A model generated the notes under the pieces. That model did no database searches, had not been told where the DNA came from, and saw only the letters and a program-made list of their open reading frames with translations. Source: a virus (taxonomy: Monodnaviria; Loebvirae; Hofneiviricota; Faserviricetes; Tubulavirales; Inoviridae). Taken from it: a stretch of DNA of 11,692 nucleotides. The DNA lies in IMG/VR virus record IMGVR_UViG_2563366980_000001; one strand, 5' to 3'. The translations under genes were made by a program, and so were the position numbers. This document shows positions 411-11,692 of this stretch, piece by piece; position 1 is the stretch's first letter, and the number at the start of each line of letters is the position of its first letter.

Positions 411-438
411 ATTTAACATAATATACATTATGCGCACC
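411..438 (-). other. dif: dif chromosome-dimer resolution site (XerC/XerD target); left boundary of integrated element
   Basis: Plus strand reads ATTTAACATAATATACATTATGCGCACC. Its reverse complement is GGTGCGCATAATGTATATTATGTTAAAT, an exact 28/28 match to the canonical E. coli dif (XerC arm, 6-bp central region, XerD arm). Confidence 0.9.
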
Positions 439-1309
439 AATGGTAAGGATGGCAGAATCTGGCGGGAATCGTTGACACTGGCCGTCAACTGGCTACTATC
501 GACAGTGATTCAAAATCATCCGTTTCTCCAAACGAATCAGAATCAAATGTCTGTCAGCAGTAAGTGAACGGCCTGACCTCACCAATCAGGCCTGTTCATC
601 CAGTTAGTTGGTAAATCTGTACCTGATACACGAGAATCAAACACCACTTCTTCAGTGCCATCACCATGATGCCGGATAATCTGGTAACCGGATTGCGGGT
701 TCTGGCTCTCAGCTTCATAAGCAGCCCGGAATGCTGGATCTTTGAGAAGCATCACTTTCAGCTCCTGATGTGTCATGAATTTTTCCATGATAAGCCCCGA
801 TGAATGCTGCCGCGCCGAATCAGCCATAACGCTGAAAATGGAAACTGTACGGCTTGGCCAACCCCGGACAGCAACAAAACAAGTTTTGTCACTGACCGGC
901 GTTATCTTTCAAAACAGACAGTTAACGATTTTTTGTCTGGTGTTTATGCGTGAAATTTCGTACGTACGAAATTCACCACCAATAAACAAACGGACGATGA
1001 CTGACCGGAAAAGCAATGCCGTCAGCATCATGACCACGCATTACCTGATTGAGAAGCCTTCTGACTTCACGGCGCTCAGGCCTGGTCATCATCATATTGC
1101 GATACCAGGACGGCGATTTATCAAACCATCTGGCACAACTGGCAAAATGTGAACCTACACGACGATAAGACTTAAGGCGGCCACCGGGAAGTCGGTCACG
1201 CGCCTTATTTTTTACAGACATAATAAATCCTCTAAGTAACTGAATACCTAGAAGATGTCGTACTGTTCATACCCCATAAAAGTTAACGCCATAATAAAAA
1301 TCCATACAA

Positions 1310-2554
1310 TCAGTTCAGGTTGTCCCGGAACAGTTCACCGCTCCTCGCGGCGCTGCGGGGCGTCGCCCTGCTCCGGTCAACCTTTCTGACCTGAAGCATC
1401 ACCATAATATCAGTCTTGTTGCTTTCACTGGTACGGGAACCGAAGAAGCTCCAGCCGGAACTGGCCTTACTGTCTTTCTGTTCAGCAAGGCCACCAAGTA
1501 AAATAATATCACCATCTGCAAGGCTGACTTCGGTTGTTACATCACGCTTGATAAGGGTTGGCGAGTTATTGACGCCGGTTTCAGTGGTCACAAAGTTGGA
1601 AAGCTGCTGCTGAATCTTGAGATCCATTGTCCGACTTTTGATTGATGGCGTTACGTTAAACAAAACACCGCTGGAACGATATTCAACGGATTGCGTGGTC
1701 GTATTGTTATTCACCGTAACACTGCCCAGTACTGGCACATCAGAGCCGACTGAAAAAGACGCTGAGGCATTATTTTTTACCCGCAGTCGTGGCGCACTGA
1801 CAACAGTAAAACGACTGTCGGTTTTAAGCAGATTGAAAATGGCATCAATGGAGCCGGTTCGAATATTGATAAAATTATCCAGTCCGGCAGCACCAACTGA
1901 AATATTGAATTTATCAGACAGAATTTTAGCCGCTAAAAGAATGCCGGAGCCGTCAGACTGCGAGGTCTGAACCTCAAAAACATAACCAGAAACAACCACT
2001 TCATCACTCATCGTATCCAGCGAAGTGACCAGTGTTTTCAGGATGGCGATATCCTCTTTCGTACCATAATAAACCAGAATATCACCGGTTCGATTGATGT
2101 AGTTGCTTGCCCCTGATGAACCTTTTAGCGAATCGTCAGAAATCACGGCTCCACTGTTATTGAAGGAGCCTGAAACGTAGCCGCCAAGAATATCAGACAG
2201 GTAGGCAACAGAACGGTACTGAGGCGTATAAGTCCATGTATAACGTGGCTTAACCGGCTCTTTCGGCGTATAGGGCGCGATAAAATCAACACCCTTTTTC
2301 GTCCATATTCGAATGTTCATATTGCCAAGATAACGGGTTACAAATTCCCGTTCATCAATATCAGGTGTTAACCTGAATGTAATCATTCGTTCATCATTAA
2401 CAAGCTGTGGATCTAGCATATACGGGACTTTAAGCACCTCACTATAAATAAGAGAAATAGCCTCCGGTAGCTTGACTTTATTTAATTCAAGCTCTGACCC
2501 TGCGAAAGCACATGAAGAAAATAGTAGCGTTAATGCGAGTAAAATCTTTTTCAT
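1310..2554 (-). CDS. pIV-like secretin (filamentous phage export channel), 414 aa
   Basis: N-terminal signal peptide MKKILLALTLLFSSCAFA. Size and position (last gene of the assembly module, directly after the pI-like gene with a TAATG stop/start overlap at 2554) match gene IV of Ff-type phages. SD-like GGGGAA lies upstream. C-terminal region is Gly/Ser/Val-rich as in secretin domains. Confidence 0.75.
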   Translation of the reverse strand: MKKILLALTLLFSSCAFAGSELELNKVKLPEAISLIYSEVLKVPYMLDPQLVNDERMITFRLTPDIDEREFVTRYLGNMNIRIWTKKGVDFIAPYTPKEPVKPRYTWTYTPQYRSVAYLSDILGGYVSGSFNNSGAVISDDSLKGSSGASNYINRTGDILVYYGTKEDIAILKTLVTSLDTMSDEVVVSGYVFEVQTSQSDGSGILLAAKILSDKFNISVGAAGLDNFINIRTGSIDAIFNLLKTDSRFTVVSAPRLRVKNNASASFSVGSDVPVLGSVTVNNNTTTQSVEYRSSGVLFNVTPSIKSRTMDLKIQQQLSNFVTTETGVNNSPTLIKRDVTTEVSLADGDIILLGGLAEQKDSKASSGWSFFGSRTSESNKTDIMVMLQVRKVDRSRATPRSAARSGELFRDNLN

Positions 2555-3579
2555 TATTTTTTCCCCGTATAAAGCGTCACACGCTCACCATCAATAATTC
2601 CGCTCATCAACATCCCTTTGTAATTAAAACTGGATGCAGGAACGGCACGCAAAACACCGGCACCGTTAACAAGAATCACAAACGCCCTGCCTTCACTGGT
2701 CATTCTCCCTGATATACGCCACTCGGTTGAAAGTGGCGGTTCAGCTGGTTCTGAGGGAGTATCTGGTGCTGGAGTAGCAGCGGAAGAACGAAACATGGCC
2801 GCATCACGTACATCTGTTGTAGCCAAATCTGGCGAGGGATCGCTTCGGCCAAACGTGCTGAAAAATGAGTAAATCAGCCAGCCTGACCCGATAAACATCA
2901 ATGGAAAAAGCACAAGAAAGAACCTGACTTTGCCAGAATTCCAGATGCTCTGGCGTTTATCTGTCTGCTTTTCATTACCGTTATTTCCTTCATAGCTTTT
3001 ATAAAGTTCAAAAATATCAGGGTTATATTTATTGCGATAACTGGTGACGAGGTTGCTTTTATAGATTTTGTGGCCTGAATATACGTCAATGCAGTAATGA
3101 TTATTCAGGCCCAACGCTTTCAGCTTGCGCATCCGGTAAGTTGTTTCTATTTTGTCTTTCAGAAAGCGAGCAATATTAGAAAGTGACTGATTTACAATAA
3201 CCAAATCACAGCTAATACCCGTTTCAGGGTGCGTAAAATGACGATGTTCAGCAATAAATGATTTCTTCTCAGCCGTCATATCCTTATCGCTACCGAAGAT
3301 TCTCCATGCTTCATCAATAACAATTAAATCACCAAACTGGCAAAAGCTCCCTTCCCCACCTTTAAAAGGAAAGAAATCTGTTTTAAGCACATCATCATTA
3401 TCCACAACAATAATTTCTCCCGTTGCATCAGGATAACGTTCGGTGATTTTATCTTTTTGTAAACCATAAATGTTCGTCACAACTCTCCGGCCGCTGGTAA
3501 ATGCAGGAATAATGACATTGCAAACGGCTTCATAACTTTTTCCTGAGCCGGGTATGCCAATATATGCAGAAATAGCCAT
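2554..3579 (-). CDS. pI / Zot-like phage assembly NTPase, 341 aa
   Basis: N-terminal Walker A motif GIPGSGKS at residues 8-15 (MAISAYIGIPGSGKSYEAV), typical of gene I and Zot proteins. Internal hydrophobic segment FFLVLFPLMFIGSGWLIYSFF consistent with the single transmembrane helix of pI. SD-like GGGTGAG upstream of ATG. Confidence 0.85.
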   Translation of the reverse strand: MAISAYIGIPGSGKSYEAVCNVIIPAFTSGRRVVTNIYGLQKDKITERYPDATGEIIVVDNDDVLKTDFFPFKGGEGSFCQFGDLIVIDEAWRIFGSDKDMTAEKKSFIAEHRHFTHPETGISCDLVIVNQSLSNIARFLKDKIETTYRMRKLKALGLNNHYCIDVYSGHKIYKSNLVTSYRNKYNPDIFELYKSYEGNNGNEKQTDKRQSIWNSGKVRFFLVLFPLMFIGSGWLIYSFFSTFGRSDPSPDLATTDVRDAAMFRSSAATPAPDTPSEPAEPPLSTEWRISGRMTSEGRAFVILVNGAGVLRAVPASSFNYKGMLMSGIIDGERVTLYTGKK

Positions 3580-3582
3580 AAC

Positions 3583-3870
3583 TCACCCTATAACAGGAAT
3601 ACGTCGAATAATAAAACGAGTAGCCATTGCGGAGATAATCATACTAATCCCCTGTGGTAATTTACTCAGATTAATGAAGTACCAGAATCCGTCTGATAAA
3701 TTGGCAAACAGCGATGAGAGATTGCTTGAATCTGGCAGTAACTCAACAAGGATTTCAACGAAGCCCTGGACTACAAAATACAGCGCAAAGAATACGACGA
3801 ATTTAATAATCAATGACCGGAATACAAAACCTAACAAAGTATTTAATGCACTAATCAGAATCCCAAACAT
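3583..3870 (-). CDS. pVI-like minor coat / membrane protein, 95 aa
   Basis: Highly hydrophobic 95-aa product. Sits between the pIII-like and pI-like genes as gene VI does in Ff phages. AAGGAG SD 8 nt upstream of ATG. Confidence 0.6.
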   Translation of the reverse strand: MFGILISALNTLLGFVFRSLIIKFVVFFALYFVVQGFVEILVELLPDSSNLSSLFANLSDGFWYFINLSKLPQGISMIISAMATRFIIRRIPVIG

Positions 3871-3882
3871 AGTTGCACTCCT

Positions 3883-5595
3883 TTAGGCACTCAGAATAAT
3901 ACGGAGCGCAACAAATCCCCATATAATCAGAAATATGGTTTCTACGGCGCCTCTGTTCTGCTCAATTAACGGACAATGGGAGTCAATTCTGTACTGGTGA
4001 TTAAACACGCTGAATTCAACAACGGGGCAGGATGCTGAACGAGAGCCGATGTTAAATTCGTTTGTAAAAGGCAACAAGTTAATAATTGGCGTTAAAATAT
4101 CTCTTGCCGTTGGCGTTTCTTCAAGCTCAGGCTCTTTTACACCGGGATCTTCTCCCAAAGCTATATTGCCATTATTTCCAGTGTCAGACCCTGAGTTGTT
4201 ATTAATGGTAATATCAATATTGACGTCAGCCCCTGCACTGTCAGATACAGGTGAAAGCATATCTAATAACGTTGGAGATAGCCTAAGTTCCGACATCGCA
4301 GAAGTTACTTCAGCCGGTGAAACCTCTTTAAACGGTAAGCCGTTATAATCGGCATTAACGGCAGCTTCAGACCACAGCTCGTTAATCATGTCGGCAAGAA
4401 GTGCTGGCGATACACTAACACTATCAAGATACTCCAGATAATCAATCATGGACTCAATATTTCCGGCCTCCAGTACTTCCGTCATGGCTTTATATTTGGT
4501 ATTGGTCCAGATAGTAAGCTCACTCTTTTCATCAATATCTTTTGCGGTGTAATCCTCTTTTTCAGGAACGGCGCAAATCGTCGAATATCCACCATTTGAC
4601 TGATTAGTCGTTTTACAAGGCGTGTTGTGATACTGATATTGCTTGCCTGCTGTTAAATAAGCAACGCTGTAATACATGGGAAGCCCTGCTACATTTTCAT
4701 ACATGGGAATACCTGCGGGAAATGAAGATGCGGACGGGTTGCTATACAAGTGTGTAATCTCAGGTATTTCATAAAATGAGGAAGGATAAGTAAACTTATA
4801 ATTATGTTCAGTAAAGGATACATCTCCATTACTGTTGACAACTTTATTCGTCACAGTGCGTTCAAAATTCGTTAGTGTTTCAGTATAAGTACGCGAGTTA
4901 TAGTCATTAAGATAATTTCTGGCAATTTCAGTTGGATTATCACCATAGTAATAAATTAGCTCTTTCGAATCCTGATAATAATAAAGCGCATTATCTGGCG
5001 TGGAATATCCTGTTTCAACACCTACAACTGGAGAACCCGCATCCACATTATTACGACTAACATGAAGGATTACCGGACTTAATTCCTGTGGTTCAAAATT
5101 AACGGTTATCGTCTTACTTTCACCACTTTGACCACTGTACGTTACTTCATATAAATTATCGGAAATCTTTTTACCGTTAGTCATTACCATTACCGAGCCG
5201 TCAGATGAACTCAAAGAAGACGGAACAAAAGATGATACAGCAGCAGCAATACCCGCCCACGTTGCAACACCGCTCATTTTGTATGATGAGGCAGCAGGCA
5301 AGTATTCGGCAGCATTAGCCGCAGCGCGGCCAACAAAAACACGGGTTGCTGTAAGCTGTGATGCCGTATAAATCGCATCATTGGCAGCAAAGCGACGAAC
5401 AAGCACCCGGCCAACGACTTTAGGAATAACAGCCCGCGCAGCCACTGCTGCAATTGCTGGTACAAATGAATATGAATATCGGGGAAAGGAAACCCAGAGA
5501 AAGGAAAAAATAAAGGAATAAACCGTCAGCCTCTTAGCCCAAGAATAACGACATAAGCTGAGACGATCCCCCATAAAAGGGAACCCAATTTCCAT
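3883..5595 (-). CDS. pIII-like adsorption / minor coat protein, 570 aa (start uncertain)
   Basis: Largest ORF of the structural module, directly after the major coat gene and its terminator. Tyr/Asn/Ser-rich central region, Gly/Ser/Asn linker-like stretches and a C-terminal hydrophobic anchor (ETIFLIIWGFVALRIILSA) as in pIII C-domains. GGAGA SD 7-9 nt upstream of ATG at 5595. The first ~106 residues are atypical, and a signal-peptide-like segment begins at the internal Met (codon 107, near 5277). Confidence 0.65.
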   Translation of the reverse strand: MEIGFPFMGDRLSLCRYSWAKRLTVYSFIFSFLWVSFPRYSYSFVPAIAAVAARAVIPKVVGRVLVRRFAANDAIYTASQLTATRVFVGRAAANAAEYLPAASSYKMSGVATWAGIAAAVSSFVPSSLSSSDGSVMVMTNGKKISDNLYEVTYSGQSGESKTITVNFEPQELSPVILHVSRNNVDAGSPVVGVETGYSTPDNALYYYQDSKELIYYYGDNPTEIARNYLNDYNSRTYTETLTNFERTVTNKVVNSNGDVSFTEHNYKFTYPSSFYEIPEITHLYSNPSASSFPAGIPMYENVAGLPMYYSVAYLTAGKQYQYHNTPCKTTNQSNGGYSTICAVPEKEDYTAKDIDEKSELTIWTNTKYKAMTEVLEAGNIESMIDYLEYLDSVSVSPALLADMINELWSEAAVNADYNGLPFKEVSPAEVTSAMSELRLSPTLLDMLSPVSDSAGADVNIDITINNNSGSDTGNNGNIALGEDPGVKEPELEETPTARDILTPIINLLPFTNEFNIGSRSASCPVVEFSVFNHQYRIDSHCPLIEQNRGAVETIFLIIWGFVALRIILSA

Positions 5596-5620
5596 AATTC
5601 AATCTCCATAATAACCTCAA

Positions 5621-5646
5621 GTAAAACGGGCGATATTGCATCGCCC
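5621..5646 (-). terminator. Rho-independent terminator after the major coat gene
   Basis: On the minus strand: GGGCGAT-GCAAT-ATCGCCC (7-bp perfect stem, 5-nt loop) followed by GTTTTAC. Lies 14 nt downstream of the coat gene stop, analogous to the strong terminator after gene VIII in Ff phages. Confidence 0.6.
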
Positions 5647-5659
5647 ATGAATAATGAAT

Positions 5660-5893
5660 TTATGCGGATTTAACGGTACGCAATACCCAGCGAACGCCAG
5701 CGACACCGGCATAAAGTGTTACCAGTGAAGCAGCAACGGCCATAATCGCAACCAGAACTGTACTGAAATCAATGCTGTTCGTCAGCGGCGATAAATCAAC
5801 ACCACTTGATGCCGCTCCTTCTGCAGCGAAAGTCGCGCCAGAAACAGCCATTAATGCAGGTACAGCCAGAAAACTAACGATTTTTTTAAACAT
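5660..5893 (-). CDS. pVIII-like major coat protein precursor, 77 aa
   Basis: Classic architecture: signal peptide MFKKIVSFLAVPALMAVSGATFA, acidic N-terminus of the mature part (AEGAASSGVDLS), hydrophobic core, basic C-terminus (RWVLRTVKSA). GGAGA SD upstream. Confidence 0.8.
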   Translation of the reverse strand: MFKKIVSFLAVPALMAVSGATFAAEGAASSGVDLSPLTNSIDFSTVLVAIMAVAASLVTLYAGVAGVRWVLRTVKSA

Positions 5894-5927
5894 AACTCTA
5901 TCTCCATTACATTTTAAAGGTTCGCAT

Positions 5928-6179
5928 TCAAGCAGTACGAACCATCTTTATTACCTGTCCCACACCTACAGAAAAAAGCCAGAGCAGCAGGACAGAGCCA
6001 AAACCTAATGTCCAGTAATTTCCCATTGCAGAATAATCAATTTGATGAAATGGTTCAGAACGTACCATTATTGCCTGACATTCTTTTGCATTGTTCGCAT
6101 TACATAAATAACCTTCAATACGGTAACCATTTTCAGGAATATGATTATCAAACTGAATATCGAAACCTGATGTATCCAT
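5928..6179 (-). CDS. small hypothetical protein with C-terminal transmembrane helix (possible minor coat protein), 83 aa
   Basis: Tightly packed between the ssDNA-binding and coat genes (start 6179, upstream stop 6182-6184). AAGG SD-like upstream. C-terminal hydrophobic helix WTLGFGSVLLLWLFSVGVGQVI. Function inferred from position only. Confidence 0.45.
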   Translation of the reverse strand: MDTSGFDIQFDNHIPENGYRIEGYLCNANNAKECQAIMVRSEPFHQIDYSAMGNYWTLGFGSVLLLWLFSVGVGQVIKMVRTA

Positions 6180-6181
6180 AA

Positions 6182-6499
6182 TCAGCCTTTTATTTCAGTA
6201 ATGCCGCCATCTGATGAAATGTTATAAGTTACTCCTTCCCTCCCCTCCATTGACCAGACGCGAACATATACAGGTATCTGGACTAACTTACCGATAAAAT
6301 TATTTGCCTGATTCATTACACCGGCATTAACAAGAGCCTGAGATACACGAATAATAATCTGGTCTTGCTTAGTGCCACCAAAACCATCAGGAATCTCTAA
6401 GCCAACACCAATTTCATTATAGTATCCCTGACCATTGACCTTATTACGCTGGCGAGCACCAAGCATTTTACCTTTTACAAAAAGACCATAATTAGACAT
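6182..6499 (-). CDS. pV-like ssDNA-binding protein (putative), 105 aa
   Basis: Immediately downstream of the replication gene with a strong SD (AAAGGAGAGTGATAT-ATG). Small Gly-rich basic protein at the position occupied by gene V or RstB in filamentous phages. Functional call is positional. Confidence 0.55.
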   Translation of the reverse strand: MSNYGLFVKGKMLGARQRNKVNGQGYYNEIGVGLEIPDGFGGTKQDQIIIRVSQALVNAGVMNQANNFIGKLVQIPVYVRVWSMEGREGVTYNISSDGGITEIKG

Positions 6500-6510
6500 A
6501 TCACTCTCCT

Positions 6511-7563
6511 TTAATGCCAGTTACTGGCATGTGAAATACGGTTATAATCGAAAATTAAACCTTTCTCATAAACCCATGATGGAATTTTGGCTGGTTTGGC
6601 TTCAAGAGTACGAACCAACGGAACAACGTTATTAGAATCCGGTGACTCACAATAAAAGTTAATATCTATTCCGAAAGAAAGTAATTCTTTACGGTGTCGG
6701 TAGAATGTAGGTTTCGGTAACATCTCTTTCATGTTCGCGCCCTGCTTCCACAATAAATATGTAGACTGTATTTTTCTTGGGAGATTAATTATTTTTTCAT
6801 CAGTTAATATGGTATTTTGATTCATTTCTATTCTCCCTACATAGTCAGAGAATAATTTATTGGGCGTCTCAATATTCCAGCTATTACCAAGCGTAAGATT
6901 CAAATCAATTAATTCAGTTGTTCTTAATGTTAATTCAATGCGTAATTTATCTTTTGACCAGTCCAGTAAACCAGCTTTAACGAATTCGTCTGCCATCTGG
7001 TGCCCTTTTTTGCCAGATGTATGCTCATCATATTTTGAATAAAATTTCAGGCTCCAACGACGGGAGTTTTTCCCTAAGTAAACAGTGCCACCTTTACCAC
7101 AGGCGCGACCGTGGCGAGTTTTAGCTTTAAATTCTGCGGCATATAACCATGCGCGGACATTTTCTAATGTTGACAATGAATACATGTAATTGATATCGAT
7201 GCGCGAGATCTTAAATTGCCCTTCCATGACCTGCCGATAGGATGGTAGATCATGAGGAATATGCAGTAATGCCAATATTCTGGCGTAAGCTGTTAACACC
7301 AACCCTTGCAAATCGTCGGAACCGATAACAGAGTGACCTTGCAAAAACTTTGATGGATTACCGTCAATGTAGAGATGTGTTGCCCGACCTTCACCATCAG
7401 ATCCAACAGACCTTACTTTCATTGTGGACTCATGCGAACCGCGAACTGTCAACCGTTTTACTGTTTCCCACTCCACTGCACCGTCAGCATTGACGCTGAC
7501 GACACTACCAGCCGGTAACGGTCGGTGTGTGCAAGGCAGGATTCCGGTAAACCAGTCGATCAT
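6511..7563 (-). CDS. Rolling-circle replication initiation protein (pII / RstA-like), 350 aa
   Basis: First gene of the minus-strand phage operon, divergent from the repressor gene. Size and position match filamentous-phage replication initiators. Family assignment from gene order and overall character, not a verified motif. Confidence 0.7.
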   Translation of the reverse strand: MIDWFTGILPCTHRPLPAGSVVSVNADGAVEWETVKRLTVRGSHESTMKVRSVGSDGEGRATHLYIDGNPSKFLQGHSVIGSDDLQGLVLTAYARILALLHIPHDLPSYRQVMEGQFKISRIDINYMYSLSTLENVRAWLYAAEFKAKTRHGRACGKGGTVYLGKNSRRWSLKFYSKYDEHTSGKKGHQMADEFVKAGLLDWSKDKLRIELTLRTTELIDLNLTLGNSWNIETPNKLFSDYVGRIEMNQNTILTDEKIINLPRKIQSTYLLWKQGANMKEMLPKPTFYRHRKELLSFGIDINFYCESPDSNNVVPLVRTLEAKPAKIPSWVYEKGLIFDYNRISHASNWH

Positions 7564-7734
7564 AAGTAGTCACACCCATCAAAATATGTGTCAATAGTCA
7601 TTTGTGAGCAGATTGAATGGTCACAATGTAATATGCTCAGATCTGACAGTCAATACATTTGCAATGTTTAAATTGTCAGAAATGAGCATCAAATCTAACT
7701 ATTGAAAAACCACTGTTAAGATGGAGCCAAGTAG
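7564..7734. promoter_or_regulatory. Divergent promoter/operator region between replication gene and repressor gene
   Basis: 171-bp AT-rich intergenic region between divergent start codons. Contains the perfect palindrome TCAGATCTGA (7637-7646), TGTGA-N12-TCACA (7604-7625), direct repeats of GTCAATA (7590-7596, 7649-7655) and repeated TGAGCA/TGCTCA half-sites (7605-7610, 7633-7638, 7683-7688). GGAG SD at 7723-7726 precedes the repressor ATG. Confidence 0.55.
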
Positions 7735-8181
7735 ATGGGCAACAATGAGCATGAAGTTATGGCGGACAAACAGAGAGCAGAACGTATCAAAAAGGTAATT
7801 CTGGAACACTCGACTTATGAAGAACTGGCCGAGAAGACTGGCATTAGCGTGAGTACGCTGGTCAGGATAGCGTCCGGCAAAACTGAACCTAAATTCAGTG
7901 ACATCATTCAGATAGCTAAAATTACTGGTGCAGACTTAAACACCTTAGCTTATGGCTATGCTCTTGATGTTAAAGAAGAAGCTACCGAGCGGAAGCTAAT
8001 CACTTCTGCGGATGGATATACTGATGAAGAAACCACTAACGCACATAATTTCATCGTGTGGAACATCAGGACACTGGAAAAACAAGATATTCTGGCACTC
8101 GCAAGGCAGGTTTCTGCCTTAAGTTCATACACTTACAGTACTAAAATGTTTATGAAAAAAGCGGTGTCTGGAGAAGAGTAA
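7735..8181 (+). CDS. XRE-family helix-turn-helix transcriptional regulator (putative prophage repressor), 148 aa
   Basis: HTH signature TYEELAEKTGISVSTLVRIASGK near the N-terminus. Divergent from the replication gene, as rstR is from rstA in CTXphi-type phages. SD GGAG 8 nt upstream. An alternative start at the internal Met (codon 9) is possible. Confidence 0.85.
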   Translation: MGNNEHEVMADKQRAERIKKVILEHSTYEELAEKTGISVSTLVRIASGKTEPKFSDIIQIAKITGADLNTLAYGYALDVKEEATERKLITSADGYTDEETTNAHNFIVWNIRTLEKQDILALARQVSALSSYTYSTKMFMKKAVSGEE

Positions 8182-8192
8182 AAGGATTAACA

Positions 8193-8245
8193 GTCTCAGG
8201 AATGAGACAAACGTGCAGTATTACCAACACTGCACGTTCTTTATT
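8193..8245 (+). terminator. Tandem hairpins after the repressor gene, the second a rho-independent terminator
   Basis: GTCTCA-GGAA-TGAGAC (8193-8208), then ACGTGCAGT-ATTACCAAC-ACTGCACGT (9-bp perfect stem, 8211-8237) followed by TCTTTATT. Confidence 0.6.
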
Positions 8246-8280
8246 GCGCGAATTTTGAACAGTGAAAAAGGATCAAAAGG

Positions 8281-8703
8281 ATGAGTAGAAATAACGAAAC
8301 AAGCGGCGTTGAACTGGTTGTCGTGGGCATATTTGCTTTCTGTCTGGCAGTTGTTGCCTGGCTAATGAAAACTTTCGATGTTGAATGGCAAACAGCTCTG
8401 GAAACTGCGCCTAGCCTGATAGTCTGGCTGCTTGTTGTTGGGGCGGGGATCTTTTTCGGGATCAAAATGGAAACAGGTCTTGTTCGCTGGGGTGCTCCAC
8501 TGGCGATTGCCCTTCTGATTCCGGTATTCAAACCAATCCTTAAGGAAGCTGCCGGAGTACGTGAAACGGGTGGATTGGTTTTCGATGATATGGTTTCGTG
8601 GTATGGAACTGGCTGGGGAATGTCGTTGATGTTTTTCGGAATTCTTATCATCGGATACGGGCTGCTTTATTGGTGGCACAGAAGAAATTCATATCACTGG
8701 TAA
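8281..8703 (+). CDS. hypothetical integral membrane protein with four predicted TM helices, 140 aa (cargo gene 1)
   Basis: Four hydrophobic segments of about 18-20 residues (VELVVVGIFAFCLAVVAWL, LIVWLLVVGAGIFFGI, WGAPLAIALLIPVF, MSLMFFGILIIGYGLLYWW). AAAAAGGA/AAAGG SD-like sequence just upstream of ATG. Not part of the canonical filamentous-phage gene set. No family recognised. Confidence 0.6.
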   Translation: MSRNNETSGVELVVVGIFAFCLAVVAWLMKTFDVEWQTALETAPSLIVWLLVVGAGIFFGIKMETGLVRWGAPLAIALLIPVFKPILKEAAGVRETGGLVFDDMVSWYGTGWGMSLMFFGILIIGYGLLYWWHRRNSYHW

Positions 8704-8707
8704 TTTC

Positions 8708-8729
8708 AAACCGTGGGAAACCACGGTTT
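8708..8729 (+). other. Perfect stem-loop with GAAA tetraloop between the two cargo genes
   Basis: AAACCGTGG-GAAA-CCACGGTTT (9-bp perfect stem) starting 5 nt after the stop of cargo gene 1. No downstream U-tract, so not a canonical intrinsic terminator. Confidence 0.45.
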
Positions 8730-8795
8730 AATAAGAGGAAACTGAACCCTATCAGTTCCACAATGGAAAAATTGTGCTGCAAACAACTTACTTAA

Positions 8796-9920
8796 TTGGA
8801 TATCAACCAAATGAATGCACTTCTAGGGAAAATTGCAGGAGCAGTAGCAACCTTCTTTGTTGCTCTTATTTTGAATAAATTTTTTTCAACATTTCGTATT
8901 AGACAACTTTACTTAGCATATGAACATATATTAGAGCACACAACACAAAGCATAACTGGATATACAGTCATGTTCACAGTTACGAACAAAGGAAAAGAGA
9001 AAGAAAAAAACGTAACCATTACAATACCAAAAAGCAAGTCGATATCTCTTATCTCAGCTAATAATGTTAGCATTGAATGTAAAGATAACAAAATAATCAT
9101 TGACCGCATCCTGCCAAAGGAAAATATTACTTTGATTGTTTTGGTTAAAAATGGTGGCGTTCTATCGAAGTCTAACTTACCAATATTGAAATCTGAAGAT
9201 GCTAATGGAAAGTGTTATGACAGCATAAAGAAAATACCACCTAGCCTTGGCCCTGCTTTCTTCAGCTTTTCATTGTTTATTGCATTTTTAGTATTAATGG
9301 GAGGAGCCATATACAAAGGTTACGATCCCTTTGAAGTAACATATACGCAATATTTCAAAATGAGATTCACTCCTTTCTATGATAGAGGTTTTGAAAATAA
9401 TTCATTCCAAAATAACTCCCTTACAAAACAATATGATACATCAAAATCAGACTTCCCGATTGATCTAAAGAGTCTTAATGTGAAGGATGGGAAAATCGAG
9501 TATGTTTTCATTATTGATAATAAAACCAACTATAACCTTAGTGCGGACATGAAATTTATAGTTAGAGATGAAAACCAATATTATGATGAGTTGGGAAAAG
9601 TATTGAACATTAGGAATGACGCTGATAGACGTCAAGCTTTACACGAACTAAGAGATAAATATCATGTTGCTGAAGATACTACAGGTGCTACATATTCAAT
9701 AAGTGAATGGATTGATAAGGGACAAAGAAAAGAAATAAAAATGACTCGCCAGTTGTCGAAAGGCATCGATTATAAGGATCTCGGTGTTGATATAAGGATA
9801 AGGAATGATGCAAATGATGATAATTATTACGGCGACTATCAATTTAAACCGGAACGCTCAGCAATAGCTAAAAATAAATTGGATGCAGCAATTGCTACTC
9901 AACGTTTTCCGTTGAAATAG
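8796..9920 (+). CDS. hypothetical membrane-anchored protein, 374 aa, AT-rich (cargo gene 2)
   Basis: Long ORF in markedly AT-rich DNA with Lys/Asn/Ile/Asp-rich product. Predicted N-terminal TM helix (residues ~9-30) and a second hydrophobic helix (~152-172), a beta-rich region between them and a ~200-aa hydrophilic C-terminal domain. The first codon at 8796 is TTG; the first ATG is at 8811 (MNALLGK...). Neither has a strong SD. Followed by a strong terminator. No family recognised. Confidence 0.65.
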   Translation: MDINQMNALLGKIAGAVATFFVALILNKFFSTFRIRQLYLAYEHILEHTTQSITGYTVMFTVTNKGKEKEKNVTITIPKSKSISLISANNVSIECKDNKIIIDRILPKENITLIVLVKNGGVLSKSNLPILKSEDANGKCYDSIKKIPPSLGPAFFSFSLFIAFLVLMGGAIYKGYDPFEVTYTQYFKMRFTPFYDRGFENNSFQNNSLTKQYDTSKSDFPIDLKSLNVKDGKIEYVFIIDNKTNYNLSADMKFIVRDENQYYDELGKVLNIRNDADRRQALHELRDKYHVAEDTTGATYSISEWIDKGQRKEIKMTRQLSKGIDYKDLGVDIRIRNDANDDNYYGDYQFKPERSAIAKNKLDAAIATQRFPLK

Positions 9921-9959
9921 TTGAGATTTTTGGTTCGCACAATGACGTTATGCTAAAGA

Positions 9960-9995
9960 GGCCGCTGCGGGATTCGATTTTCGCAGCGGCCTTTT
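9960..9995 (+). terminator. Rho-independent terminator ending the cargo operon
   Basis: GGCCGCTGCG-(12-nt loop)-CGCAGCGGCC, a 10-bp perfect GC-rich stem (9960-9969 / 9982-9991) followed by TTTT (9992-9995). Begins 40 nt after the stop of the 374-aa ORF. Confidence 0.8.
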
Positions 9996-10025
9996 CAACA
10001 TAACGAGTCGTACATTATGCGCACC
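9993..10025 (-). other. dif-like hybrid attachment site (right prophage junction)
   Basis: Minus strand reads GGTGCGCATAA-TGTACGACTCG-TTATGTTGAAA. The XerC arm is 11/11 identical to dif, the spacer is 11 bp instead of 6, and the XerD-like arm matches TTATGTTAAAT at 9/11. Same orientation as the canonical dif at 411-438. About 78 bp from the hipA stop. Confidence 0.7.
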
Positions 10026-10103
10026 AACATAAACCAAGGGAGAATCCAGTCGTTGGCGGTTCATGATTGTTCTGCTCATTAACAACGACCAAAACCCCAT
10101 ATC

Positions 10104-11426
10104 TTACTTAATACCGTATTCTCGGCTTAACCGACCGTGCAACCTCAACACATTGGTTTCAACTGCCGTCACCACGTTCTCCGGAAAATCTGTCGGTAAT
10201 GAAGTCTTCACGTTATCCAGTGCTGCCGGAATCATTCTGGCAAAGTCACTCAGGATTTCATGCATCTGCACTTCCGGGAATTTCAGCACCTTTGCTGTCG
10301 CCAGAAAATGTCGCGGATAAATTTTATCGATTGCCGTTTTTTTGCCTTTGGATGCGTTAAGCCCCATTGCCAGTTTGAGATCGCTGATGTGTATTCCCGT
10401 ACCGCCAAGGACCGGAAATGCCGAAATGATGTCATAAAATGGTGTGAGCCGATAACTGCCGCCAGCCTGAATAAATACGGAGAAGTTTTTTGCATGGCCA
10501 TCTGTTGCGCCAATCAACCACTGGAAGACCTGAAACTTCATAAAATCATAGCGATCTTTCAGCGCCTCGCTGGACCCCATCAAAAAAGCCATAATTTGCG
10601 CGATACCGGGGCCTCCATCTGATTCATATTTCACCGATGAAGGTAAACCGAATGTCTGGCACATATCCTCCTGTGGCAAGCGAAGTAAAACCGTTCGCTC
10701 AGTATTCCAACGCCTGTCAAAACGTTTGACCGCTAACGCGCGCACCCTTCCCGCTTTAATGATTTCTGCGTCCGGAACATTCAACCCGAGTTCTTTCGCC
10801 AGCAGCAAACAGTAATACTCATTATCAACGCTTTGGCTAAGATCGAGCGTCGCATTGGGCTGTCTGATTTCGCCAATCGGCAATTTGATAATGTGCGTCG
10901 TTGGCGTTATTCCCTTCGGAATGCACCAGTCATTGCCTATTCTGAGCAGCGCAGTCTTCTCCTGTGCGCCAGCAACCGAGATGCGAAAGTCATTTTCTTC
11001 TCTAATCATGCCTAACGGGATATCTGCTTTATAAGCCGTTAATACTTCTTCAAGTCTGGCTTCAGTAAGCTTTTCCCATGCCATTATCGGACACATTACG
11101 GTTTCATCTTCGGGGATTAACGTCACGGCACCAACGCTGTCTCGCCCTATTTCTGACAATAAATCAAACGGTTGTCTGGATTTAGCATGATAACGTTTAA
11201 CGATCCGGTCACGTACAATCGGGCTATCGGGTAACAGGTTATCGAAGAAGTTAAATACGGCATCAGAGGTGATATTCCTCCTCTGCAATGGCAGCGAAAG
11301 TGACAACGGTCTGGCATAACGGCTGGCTAACCACTCAGGTGCATACTTAAAGGTGTGCGCGCCGTTGGCTAACTTCGTTAACTCGCCTACCCGCTGGTTG
11401 TTCATCCAAGTGACTAGTTTAGGCAT
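10104..11426 (-). CDS. hipA: HipA serine/threonine kinase toxin (type II TA system), 440 aa
   Basis: Translation from the ATG at 11426 (MPKLVTWMNNQRVGELTKLANGAHTFKYAPEWLASRYARPLSLSLPLQR...) is recognisably near-identical to E. coli HipA as I recall it. The start overlaps the hipB stop (ATGA). The ORF-track entry begins 19 codons further upstream in frame, but those codons overlap hipB. Confidence 0.95.
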   Translation of the reverse strand: MPKLVTWMNNQRVGELTKLANGAHTFKYAPEWLASRYARPLSLSLPLQRRNITSDAVFNFFDNLLPDSPIVRDRIVKRYHAKSRQPFDLLSEIGRDSVGAVTLIPEDETVMCPIMAWEKLTEARLEEVLTAYKADIPLGMIREENDFRISVAGAQEKTALLRIGNDWCIPKGITPTTHIIKLPIGEIRQPNATLDLSQSVDNEYYCLLLAKELGLNVPDAEIIKAGRVRALAVKRFDRRWNTERTVLLRLPQEDMCQTFGLPSSVKYESDGGPGIAQIMAFLMGSSEALKDRYDFMKFQVFQWLIGATDGHAKNFSVFIQAGGSYRLTPFYDIISAFPVLGGTGIHISDLKLAMGLNASKGKKTAIDKIYPRHFLATAKVLKFPEVQMHEILSDFARMIPAALDNVKTSLPTDFPENVVTAVETNVLRLHGRLSREYGIK

Positions 11427-11692
11427 CACCACTCCAGATCTTGCTGTTCTGTTGCTTCTGGCGAGGCATTTTTTGCGTCGCATAGCGTCATTGAGAGTTC
11501 AAGCGACTGTAAAATCTTAAAAAATGTCGTGAGCGAGGTATTGTTAGGATTGTTTTCGAAATTGGAAATTGTCGCCTGCTTAATGCCGATTTTTTTCGCC
11601 AACTCGCTCTGCGTCCAGCCGTTTTGCTGGCGAACCAGTTTCATTGCATTCGCCAATTGCATTGGGCTATAGATCTTCTGAAAGCTCATCAT
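11426..11692 (-). CDS. hipB: HipB antitoxin, HTH (XRE-type) DNA-binding protein, 88 aa
   Basis: MMSFQKIYSPMQLANAMKLVRQQNGWTQSELAKKIGIKQATISNFEN... matches E. coli HipB. The start codon lies at the window edge (11690-11692). The stop overlaps the hipA start. Confidence 0.95.
   Translation of the reverse strand: MMSFQKIYSPMQLANAMKLVRQQNGWTQSELAKKIGIKQATISNFENNPNNTSLTTFFKILQSLELSMTLCDAKNASPEATEQQDLEW

Follow-up and report, generated by a model that had tools for sequence, protein, structure and literature searches.

The window, that is, the whole stretch of 11,692 nucleotides analysed here, carries at 439-10025, on the minus strand, a filamentous prophage of the CUS-1 type of 9,587 bp. With a probability of about 0.9, this segment is the CUS-1 (CUSphi) prophage of Escherichia coli O18:K1:H7, an intact integrase-less inovirus inserted at the chromosomal dif site via XerCD, by the single-strand route of the CTXphi type. 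The whole window was 100% identical to E. coli UTI89, a strain of serotype O18:K1:H7, and the inserted element was likewise 100% identical in NU14. In CUS-1, as far as its original description is relayed by a later source (Gonzalez et al. 2002, as cited in PMC4266046), the serotype and lineage, the integration at the chromosomal dif of O18:K1:H7 E. coli and the organisation are all as in the UTI89 element, including two strain-specific ORFs (orf1 and orf1a) at the attP-proximal end. The identity with CUS-1 of strain RS218 was drawn from serotype and lineage, locus and the published relationship of ~99% between CUS-1 and Ypfphi (PMC4266046). Published work already covers the phage, the site where it inserts and its integration class, and nothing categorically new was encountered.

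[quoted passage not shown] Because this empty site abuts the hipA-side flank, the insertion could be delimited to exactly 9,587 bp (439-10025), the crossover point itself being ambiguous within the shared TTATGCGCACCAA. The XerC arm (TTATGCGCACC) is repeated in direct orientation at 10015-10025, the two copies starting 9,587 bp apart, and the flank outside the element holds the chromosomal genes hipA (10104-11426) and hipB (11426-11692), both on the minus strand (Pfam HipA_C and Couple_hipA; RefSeq). An insertion at dif beside hipBA, as proposed in the preliminary description, was thus borne out by the perfect site and by the empty locus in N54. The two direct dif-type sites proposed there held only in part: the left dif is perfect and the XerC arm is directly repeated, but the right-hand site is a partial dif, in which only the XerC arm and three adjacent bases match, and a third, inverted dif-like site (9932-9958) had been missed.

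The suggested resemblance to Ypfphi of Yersinia pestis (Derbise et al. 2007; PMC4266046), as well as to CUS-1, was upheld. Positions 424-8261 were 99.4% identical over 7,839 bp to the Ypfphi prophage of Y. pestis NCTC5923, whose core proteins were 98.8-100% identical to those of the UTI89 element and whose attP module was 99-100% identical; both phages sit at dif and both occur in tandem arrays. The difference lies in the cargo, as the region 8262-9929, with ORFs of 140 and 374 aa, is replaced in Ypfphi by unrelated ORFs of 135 and 87 aa, and the UTI89 element measures 9.6 kb against 8.7 kb in Ypfphi. Ypfphi is reported to make virions (PMC4266046), and the UTI89 element has an intact gene set. 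A megablast search of the whole element against a phage collection without CUS-1 or Ypfphi phage records gave no match, and an Rfam scan of the entire window detected no RNA family.

The phage (+), or coding, strand corresponds to the minus strand of the window, and along it the element carries the gene set of Ff-like Inoviridae in Ff order: a gene II-type Rep, a G5P, a coat protein, pIII- and pVI-like proteins, a Zot-type pI and a pIV. The rolling-circle replication initiator Rep (6511-7563, 350 aa; Pfam Phage_CRI, E 1e-73, and G2P_X_C, E 3e-34) had as its nearest phage protein the gene II product of phage I2-2 (58% identity). It is followed on the same strand by a G5P-type ssDNA-binding protein (6182-6499, 105 aa; Pfam Putative_G5P, E 1e-52), a small membrane protein in the pVII/pIX position (5928-6179, 83 aa; phrog_3679, E 1e-32; 'membrane protein' in RefSeq) and the 77-aa precursor of the major coat protein (5660-5893; phrog_2186, E 4e-29), with a weak Pfam Phage_Coat_B match under the curated cutoff (E 0.0016). 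Directly downstream of the coat gene there is a terminator-like hairpin (5626-5648, minus strand), with a 10-pair stem and then a T-run, for which this role is suggested by its position. The pIII-like adsorption protein (3883-5445, minus strand; 520 aa in RefSeq, with the ORF open to 5595) was assigned from its PHROG family (phrog_3942, E 2e-251) and position, no match being found in Pfam or PDB; its C-terminal 100 aa are common to other pIII-type PHROGs, and by position the gene corresponds to puvA of CUS-1, which is described as encoding a receptor-binding virion protein (PMC4266046).

The remaining morphogenesis genes, also on the minus strand, encode a pVI-like minor coat protein (3583-3870, 95 aa; Pfam DUF2523, E 1e-20), which also matched phrog_974 'minor head protein' and, more weakly, an Ace-like protein; a pI/Zot-type assembly ATPase (2554-3579, 341 aa; Pfam Zot, E 2e-26), 45.5% identical to the nearest deposited phage pI and at 45.5% or less to metagenomic inovirus Zot proteins; and a pIV-type secretin (1310-2554, 414 aa; Pfam Secretin, E 1e-24), the predicted virion export channel, which also matched GspD structures and the f1 pIV structure 7OFH (E 1e-10). 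Two small accessory ORFs lie between the secretin gene and dif on this strand. The one adjoining dif (579-776; RefSeq CDS of 65 aa, which could extend to 827; phrog_6642, E 1e-53) was 98% identical in Y. pestis and sits where the YPO2280a/YPO2281 homologues do (position: PMC4266046). The other, a small basic ORF of 82 aa (973-1221; RefSeq CDS), was 100% identical in Y. pestis and 78% identical in a Brenneria phage, and had no family match in Pfam, PHROGs or NCBIfam; searches of both ORFs with PADLOC, Pfam and NCBIfam returned nothing.

Among the scanned ORFs of at least 69 aa, real or in an alternative frame, none had an integrase or recombinase domain, nor did the alternative-frame ORFs of 69-136 aa conceal a recombinase, and the intergenic gaps are too short to encode one. 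The preliminary description was therefore correct in reporting no integrase. Its core inovirus modules, in the stated order on one strand, are backed by Pfam and PHROGs, the homology of Rep, pI and pIV to inovirus proteins by family, phage-protein and structure matches, and the possession of a secretin of its own, unlike CTXphi, by the Pfam Secretin and f1 pIV matches. The gene set that it gave was incomplete, as three plus-strand genes situated between Rep and attP (7735-9920) and the two small minus-strand ORFs also belong to the element.

The first of the plus-strand genes encodes an HTH repressor of the Cro/CI type (7735-8181; Pfam HTH_3, E 2e-9; phrog_3557, E 4e-74), divergent from Rep and in the position of RstR. 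Membership of the RstR family was rejected, since its score against NCBIfam phage_RstR (E 8e-4, 19.7 bits) fell below the cutoff of 80; it is instead an HTH_3 repressor in the RstR position. The gap between Rep and repressor (7564-7734) contains a long palindrome at about 7630-7690 (ssDNA fold z-score -2.8), whose hairpin is an interrupted inverted repeat, and, on the minus strand, hexamers resembling promoter elements (7719-7692 and 7653-7625). These sequence features mark the gap as a candidate operator/promoter region, which may also be the (+) origin.

The hipA-side end of the element holds the attachment module. The inverted dif-like site attP2 (9932-9958, plus strand), read from the sequence as GGTTCGCACAA-TGACG-TTATGCTAAAG, is kept in 28 IMG/VR contigs and several genomes. 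The attP1/dif hybrid junction (9993-10025) reads on the minus strand GGTGCGCATAA-TGTACGACTCG-TTATGTTGAAA; the host dif supplied its XerC arm (10015-10025), and the phage its 11-nt spacer and XerD-like arm. A junction of attP1 to the left end would read ...CATTATGCGCACCAATGGTAAGG... In Y. pestis, the XerC arm at the chromosomal junction carries the host-type polymorphism, whereas phage-phage junctions keep the phage arm. Between attP2 and attP1, a GC-rich stem-loop (9959-9992; inverted repeat I2, with arms at 9946-9969 and 9982-10005) caps the attP hairpin, and shows three compensatory pair changes in Brenneria-type phages.

For the (+) strand of 9920-10035 a forked hairpin was predicted, with a folding energy of -30.5 kcal/mol and a z-score of -7.0; the opposite strand folded almost equally well (-27.9 kcal/mol). 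The choice of strand was based on junction geometry and the general inovirus rule. Among 17 distinct attP sequences, 89% of cells pair, compared with 30-46% when the partners were slid; four pairs show compensatory changes, which come essentially from one divergent lineage (Brenneria-type) and thus amount to few independent events, and variation is concentrated in the bulge and loop. The spacers measure 11 nt in attP1 and 5 nt in attP2, against 12 and 7 nt in CTXphi, which has the same design (PMC3089051). The junction lies at attP1, with the top strand of the XerC arm on the coding strand, matching the prediction for (+)-strand integration. Three features of a CTXphi-type IMEX are found in the element, namely no recombinase, inverted hairpin-forming sites, and a crossover at the boundary of XerC arm and central region with dif regenerated at one end, and reviews count CUS-1phi and Ypfphi among the CTX-type phages (PMC4246890, PMC3089051, PMC3442271).

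Integration as dsDNA through attP1 alone, in the manner of a VGJphi-type IMEX, would be reversible and would let XerCD excise the prophage. The direct repeats flanking the prophage (XerC arm plus ACA) and the empty sites in related strains would accord with it, but a strain that the phage had simply never entered would show such a site just as well. The arms of duplex attP1 stand 11 nt apart, against 6 nt in dif, which is not the anatomy of a VGJphi-type site; moreover, attP1 and the inverted attP2 are conserved as a pair, with compensatory changes that a duplex-only site would not need, and both CUS-1phi and Ypfphi are assigned in reviews to the irreversible CTX type (PMC4246890). This dsDNA route is accordingly very improbable, and excision by Xer through the direct dif-type repeats was discarded in view of site anatomy and literature.

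Under CTX-type single-strand integration, attP1 and the inverted attP2 of the packaged (+) strand would fold into a forked hairpin mimicking a dif duplex, in which a bulged central region separates the XerC arm from the XerD arm. Where the XerC arm meets the central region, XerC would then exchange a single strand between the hairpin and dif, and the intermediate would be resolved by replication. The expected outcome is a functional dif regenerated at the secretin end (411-438), in which, following the CTX-type model, the host would contribute the XerD arm and central region and the phage the XerC arm (428-438), the other end carrying attP2, the hairpin and the attP1/dif hybrid (9932-10025). 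This hybrid as a duplex would not be a Xer substrate, so integration would be one-way. The regenerated dif could take further copies, producing tandem arrays, and new (+) strands would arise by Rep-driven rolling-circle replication from the origin of one prophage into the next copy. G5P would coat these strands, pI would assemble them, and the pIV secretin encoded by the phage itself would serve for their export. That the process depends on XerC and is irreversible, that tandem copies are needed and that virions are produced is thus anticipated by analogy with the CTXphi and Ypfphi literature.

The earlier suggestion that the prophage could be amplified or lost through Xer recombination was accordingly retained in its first half, tandem copies being present in NU14 and other strains. 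Loss is not expected, because integration of the CTX type, a class that counts CUS-1phi and Ypfphi among its related members, is listed as irreversible (PMC4246890).

Tandem copies were found in NU14, CUVET21-PYO5 and Y. pestis, and a single copy in the UTI89 assembly. CTX-type phages need a tandem array for virions, and a solitary prophage would yield no phage. A solitary copy of this type cannot remake a circular genome by rolling-circle replication, so the UTI89 prophage could be genetically intact and yet functionally locked, a fixed chromosomal island expressing only the repressor and cargo genes. The UTI89 records, which show the element in one place only, agree with this; the other UTI89 records are exactly equal in length and may therefore not be independent assemblies. 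However, the near-clonal NU14 has the element twice in perfect tandem at this locus, most other carriers have it in two to three places, and a 9.6-kb tandem repeat could have been merged into one copy in the 2006 UTI89 assembly, all of which makes a locked island unlikely. Decay into a domesticated remnant, kept for its accessory genes only, might be read from the internal stop in Rep of the CUVET21-PYO5 relative and the frameshifted coat gene in the second NU14 copy. It is exceedingly improbable for the UTI89 element, in which all eleven phage ORFs are full length and 98.8-100% identical to those of Ypfphi, a phage reported to be infectious (PMC4266046).

The intact CUS-1-type prophage resembles CTXphi in having no integrase, in its inverted attP1/attP2 sites forming a bulged (+)-strand hairpin, in the regenerated dif (PMC3089051; PMC4246890), in the divergent HTH repressor in the RstR position and in the accessory genes at its ends. 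It differs in encoding its own secretin, where CTXphi relies on that of the host, in a Rep of the Ff/I2-2 gene II type and not RstA, in the lack of toxin genes and in a repressor that falls under the RstR family cutoff. With the UPphi/Lineavirus-type dif-integrating inoviruses of Enterobacterales (PMC7307601), which in E. coli occupy the same dif/hipA locus, it has in common a 94-nt attP module and Rep and G5P proteins 86-96% identical. The morphogenesis genes are essentially unrelated (pIV ~27% identical, the rest undetectable), and both groups are thus mosaics sharing only the replication and integration modules.

The attP-adjacent slot holds two plus-strand cargo genes. The first (8281-8703; phrog_4174, E 1e-84) encodes a 140-aa membrane protein present in about 128 complete E. 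coli genomes and absent from Ypfphi. The second (8796-9920; RefSeq start 8811, 369 aa) encodes a rare 374-aa protein with two predicted TM helices and beta-sandwich domains, and has a GC content of ~32%, compared with 37-50% across the phage core. The stem at 9959-9992, followed by TTTT, looks like a terminator of these genes. Neither cargo protein had an accepted match in PADLOC, Pfam or NCBIfam, a single PADLOC match to JetB (E 0.004) being dismissed as noise. A distant relationship of the 374-aa protein to the STM4504/CBY_0614 family, which fills the same slot in other strains, was also discarded (hhalign probability 0.1%; family model matched by 0/9 remote homologues).

The slot is swapped among phages with at least 99% identical backbones, and some versions contain defence-type genes; its contents elsewhere include a DpnII/MboI-type REase-fold protein, a CAP12/Pycsar-type TIR protein and an STM4504-family protein. 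Homologues of the 374-aa protein were found in the same slot of an unrelated dif-inovirus (61% identity) and beside the integrase of a P2-like prophage (35% identity). That 8182-9929 is an exchange hotspot for anti-phage or host-fitness cargo, and that the 374-aa protein acts as a clade-specific factor of superinfection exclusion or defence in O18:K1:H7 UTI89/NU14, is a speculative proposal to which we give rather low odds.

CUS-1 and Ypfphi have been linked to raised fitness or virulence in neonatal-meningitis and uropathogenic E. coli K1 and in third-pandemic Y. pestis (PMC4266046). If the proposal on the cargo slot were true, the 374-aa protein could underlie the reported fitness effect of CUS-1. 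The added value of the present analysis is modest, and consists of borders and attP anatomy mapped to the base in UTI89, the possibility that the single UTI89 copy is an assembly collapse, given the NU14 tandem, a 94-nt attP module common to several otherwise unrelated enterobacterial inovirus backbones, and an attP-adjacent cargo slot that is swapped, sometimes with recognised defence genes. As UTI89 is a standard UPEC model, recognising this prophage matters for strain engineering and for the biology of the terminus region.

The window matched NC_007946.1 1652577-1664268, from the chromosome of the E. coli O18:K1:H7 strain UTI89, with 100% identity over 11,692 bp. On the minus strand, positions 411-438 match the 28-bp E. 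coli dif perfectly (GGTGCGCATAATGTATATTATGTTAAAT; zero such matches expected by chance), and a second copy of its XerC arm with three adjacent bases was found in direct orientation 9,587 bp away, at 10011-10025. In strain N54, a CSF isolate whose flanks are 100% identical to those of the window, dif is directly joined to the sequence after 10025; therefore, 439-10025 is a 9,587-bp insertion into dif, with the stop codon of hipA 78 bp away and a crossover point that is ambiguous inside the common TTATGCGCACCAA. The perfect dif and the empty site in N54, a comparison with related strains of the kind that the preliminary description had proposed, bear out its placement of a prophage at dif beside hipBA. 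Its dif-type sites in direct orientation at both ends correspond to the dif at 411-438 and the XerC-arm repeat, but an inverted second site (attP2) and a hairpin had been missed.

The prophage of Y. pestis NCTC5923 was 99.4% identical to window positions 424-8261 and 99-100% identical over the 98-bp attP region, and its core proteins, all full length, were 98.8-100% identical. CUS-1 of E. coli O18:K1:H7 and Ypfphi are reported to share a core that is about 99% identical and to differ in the attL-adjacent ORFs (PMC4266046, PMC7307601). Judged by sequence, this is an already described prophage of the CUS-1/Ypfphi type in a well-known genome, a confident identification that is based on the lineage, the locus and the published relationship to Ypfphi; the resemblance to CUS-1 and Ypfphi given in the preliminary description holds. 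At least 80% of the element was present in 84 of 5,426 complete E. coli genomes. The phage reference collection contained no close relative, the best matches being I2-2 gene II for Rep (58%) and 45.5% or less for pI. A separate contig labelled as a 'Candidatus Nanosynbacter' MAG (JARKOR010000214.1) carries E. coli hipA (96%) beside a dif-integrated inovirus with the same attP, and is almost certainly mis-binned.

Pfam and PHROGs matches recovered the core inovirus modules on the minus strand in Ff order, as had been described: a gene II-type Rep (Phage_CRI, E 1e-73; G2P_X_C, E 3e-34), the G5P ssDNA-binding protein (E 1e-52), an 83-aa membrane protein between G5P and the coat, the major coat protein (phrog_2186, E 4e-29; weak Pfam Coat_B) with a terminator-like hairpin directly after its gene, a pIII-like protein (520/570 aa, PHROG only), a pVI-like protein (DUF2523), a Zot-type pI (E 2e-26) and a secretin (E 1e-24) that also matches the solved f1 pIV structure 7OFH. 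The phage therefore encodes its own pIV, and the homology of Rep, pI and pIV to inovirus proteins is established by these family matches, I2-2 gene II and 7OFH. The secretin and dif are separated by two small ORFs with no assigned function. Scans of real and alternative-frame ORFs in the window detected no integrase or recombinase domain, and the non-coding gaps are too short for a hidden one, in agreement with the integrase-less character first proposed. The earlier inventory stood for the minus-strand modules but omitted three plus-strand genes: 7735-8181 encodes an HTH_3 repressor, 8281-8703 a membrane protein of 140 aa and 8796-9920 a protein of 374 aa. Separately, two strong hairpins, including the palindrome TGAAATTTCGTACGTACGAAATTTCA, were observed between the small ORFs on the minus strand at 870-975 (fold z-score of -4.35 for 439-980), and may represent a packaging signal or the minus-strand origin.

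The attachment region comprises two sites. Read on the minus strand from 10025 to 9993, attP1 is GGTGCGCATAA-TGTACGACTCG-TTATGTTGAAA, with a XerC arm the same as that of dif, an 11-nt spacer that starts with TGT, like the central region of dif, and a XerD-like arm; attP2 is inverted on the plus strand at 9932-9958 (GGTTCGCACAA-TGACG-TTATGCTAAAG), and a GC-rich stem-loop lies between them. In fold computations, the phage coding strand of 9920-10035 formed a forked hairpin with a folding energy of -30.5 kcal/mol and a z-score of -7.0, the same design as the CTXphi attP(+), whose spacers are of 12 and 7 nt (PMC3089051). This 94-nt module is kept in 28 IMG/VR contigs and in further loci, those of Brenneria and Photorhabdus among them. 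When 17 distinct versions were aligned, pairing was retained in 89% of cells, versus 30-46% with slid partners, variation gathered in the bulge (10006-10011) and the loop, and four pairs had double compensatory changes, which are supportive rather than overwhelming, since they come mostly from one divergent lineage.

Another dif-integrating inovirus (L043 145-215 and 9190-9260; ends of L045 and L046) has the same attP module, a 61% cargo homologue and a pIV 51% identical to that of the window, with no detectable Rep similarity. Its attP1 XerC arm is immediately followed by 43 bp that duplicate the hipA-side flank of E. coli dif, and its prophage is thereby bounded by a longer direct repeat; this duplication suggests capture of attP1 from a chromosomal dif region. 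At the other end of the element, the first ~25 nt (439-465; AATGGTAAGGATGGCAGAATCTGG) resemble the Y. pestis chromosomal flank by the dif XerC arm (L006, about 960-990), where a local alignment of 22 columns has 19 identities, and also the left end of the Brenneria phage.

The coding strand bears the top strand of the attP1 XerC arm, and the prophage junction is at attP1, a geometry that fits (+)-strand integration by XerC. The Y. pestis chromosomal junction has the host-type arm TTATGTGCACC and phage-phage junctions retain TTATGCGCACC; arm variants in other contigs follow their differing host flanks. The CTXphi column of a review classification includes CUS-1phi and Ypfphi as related phages (PMC4246890; also PMC3089051, PMC3442271); there, integration is XerC-initiated, replication-completed and irreversible, and phage are made by rolling-circle replication, not excision (PMC4246890). 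Integration would thus be expected to be one-way. The preliminary description held that the prophage can be amplified or lost through Xer recombination: amplification is expected, as a regenerated dif would take repeated integrations, and tandem arrays are seen, but loss is not expected given the irreversibility listed for this class (PMC4246890).

The UTI89 records have one prophage copy, and the near-clonal NU14 (L013 11001-30173) has two in perfect tandem at the same locus, the second with a frameshifted coat gene; tandem arrays also occur in most other carriers and in Y. pestis. Either the UTI89 prophage is truly solitary, and under the CTX model would yield no phage, or the 2006 assembly may have collapsed the tandem repeat, as the two copies in NU14 would favor; the chromosome is of exactly equal length in the other UTI89 records. 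An attP1-to-left-end junction (...CGTACATTATGCGCACC|AATGGTAAGGATGG...) would mark tandem copies or the circular replicative form.

Among phages with a CUS-1 backbone at least 99% identical, the genes between the repressor and attP2 vary (loci compared: the window, L005, L006, L022, L024, L033 and L034). The slot holds the 140-aa and 374-aa ORFs in the window (8182-9929), an STM4504/CBY_0614-family protein in L005 (10235-11670), a 264-aa protein with a DpnII/MboI REase fold in L024 and L034 (PADLOC Aga_Helical-REase, E 1e-34), in L033 a 368-aa protein that clusters with a TIR protein of the CAP12/Pycsar type, and the Ypfphi ORFs in Ypfphi. A Fic/DOC protein (L041) and SduA/Shedu (L023, which has lost the attP1 side) were found on other backbones with the same attP module. 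Several contents of the slot in the CUS-1-type phages are recognised defence-type domains, and filamentous prophages with defence cargo have been reported in other hosts (PMC11341870, PMC11630473). The 8262-9929 cargo was found in only 10 complete E. coli genome records, at least four of them UTI89 itself, and the 374-aa protein is itself rare, with 8 clusters in a set of 5.8 billion proteins and a profile search yielding 189 remote representatives. Predictions give it two TM helices and beta-sandwich domains, and searches gave no informative fold match and no PADLOC defence-family match. Its homologues occupy the same slot of an unrelated dif-inovirus (61% identical) or adjoin the integrase of a P2-like prophage (35%), and a role in defence or exclusion is therefore only hypothesized.

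At about 498 places, on hundreds of E. coli plasmids, an STM4504/CBY_0614-family gene precedes attP2 and the GC hairpin, which have 89-94% identity to 9931-10002, with the attP1 side missing and IS remnants nearby (e.g. L003 3059-4071 and L004 3414-4076, large plasmids with iss or MacB/TolC efflux genes). This segment looks like a captured cargo/attP end of a CUS-like phage.

The Rep/G5P (86-96%) and attP modules were common to CUS-1-type and UPphi/Lineavirus-type phages (L014-L041 comparison), whereas their morphogenesis genes are essentially unrelated (pIV about 27%), a pattern of modular mosaicism at the sequence level that agrees with PMC7307601. Overall, the initial observation was confirmed and its interpretation supported, as corrected for the inverted attP2 and hairpin, the expected one-way integration, the repressor and cargo genes on the plus strand, and the caveat on copy number.
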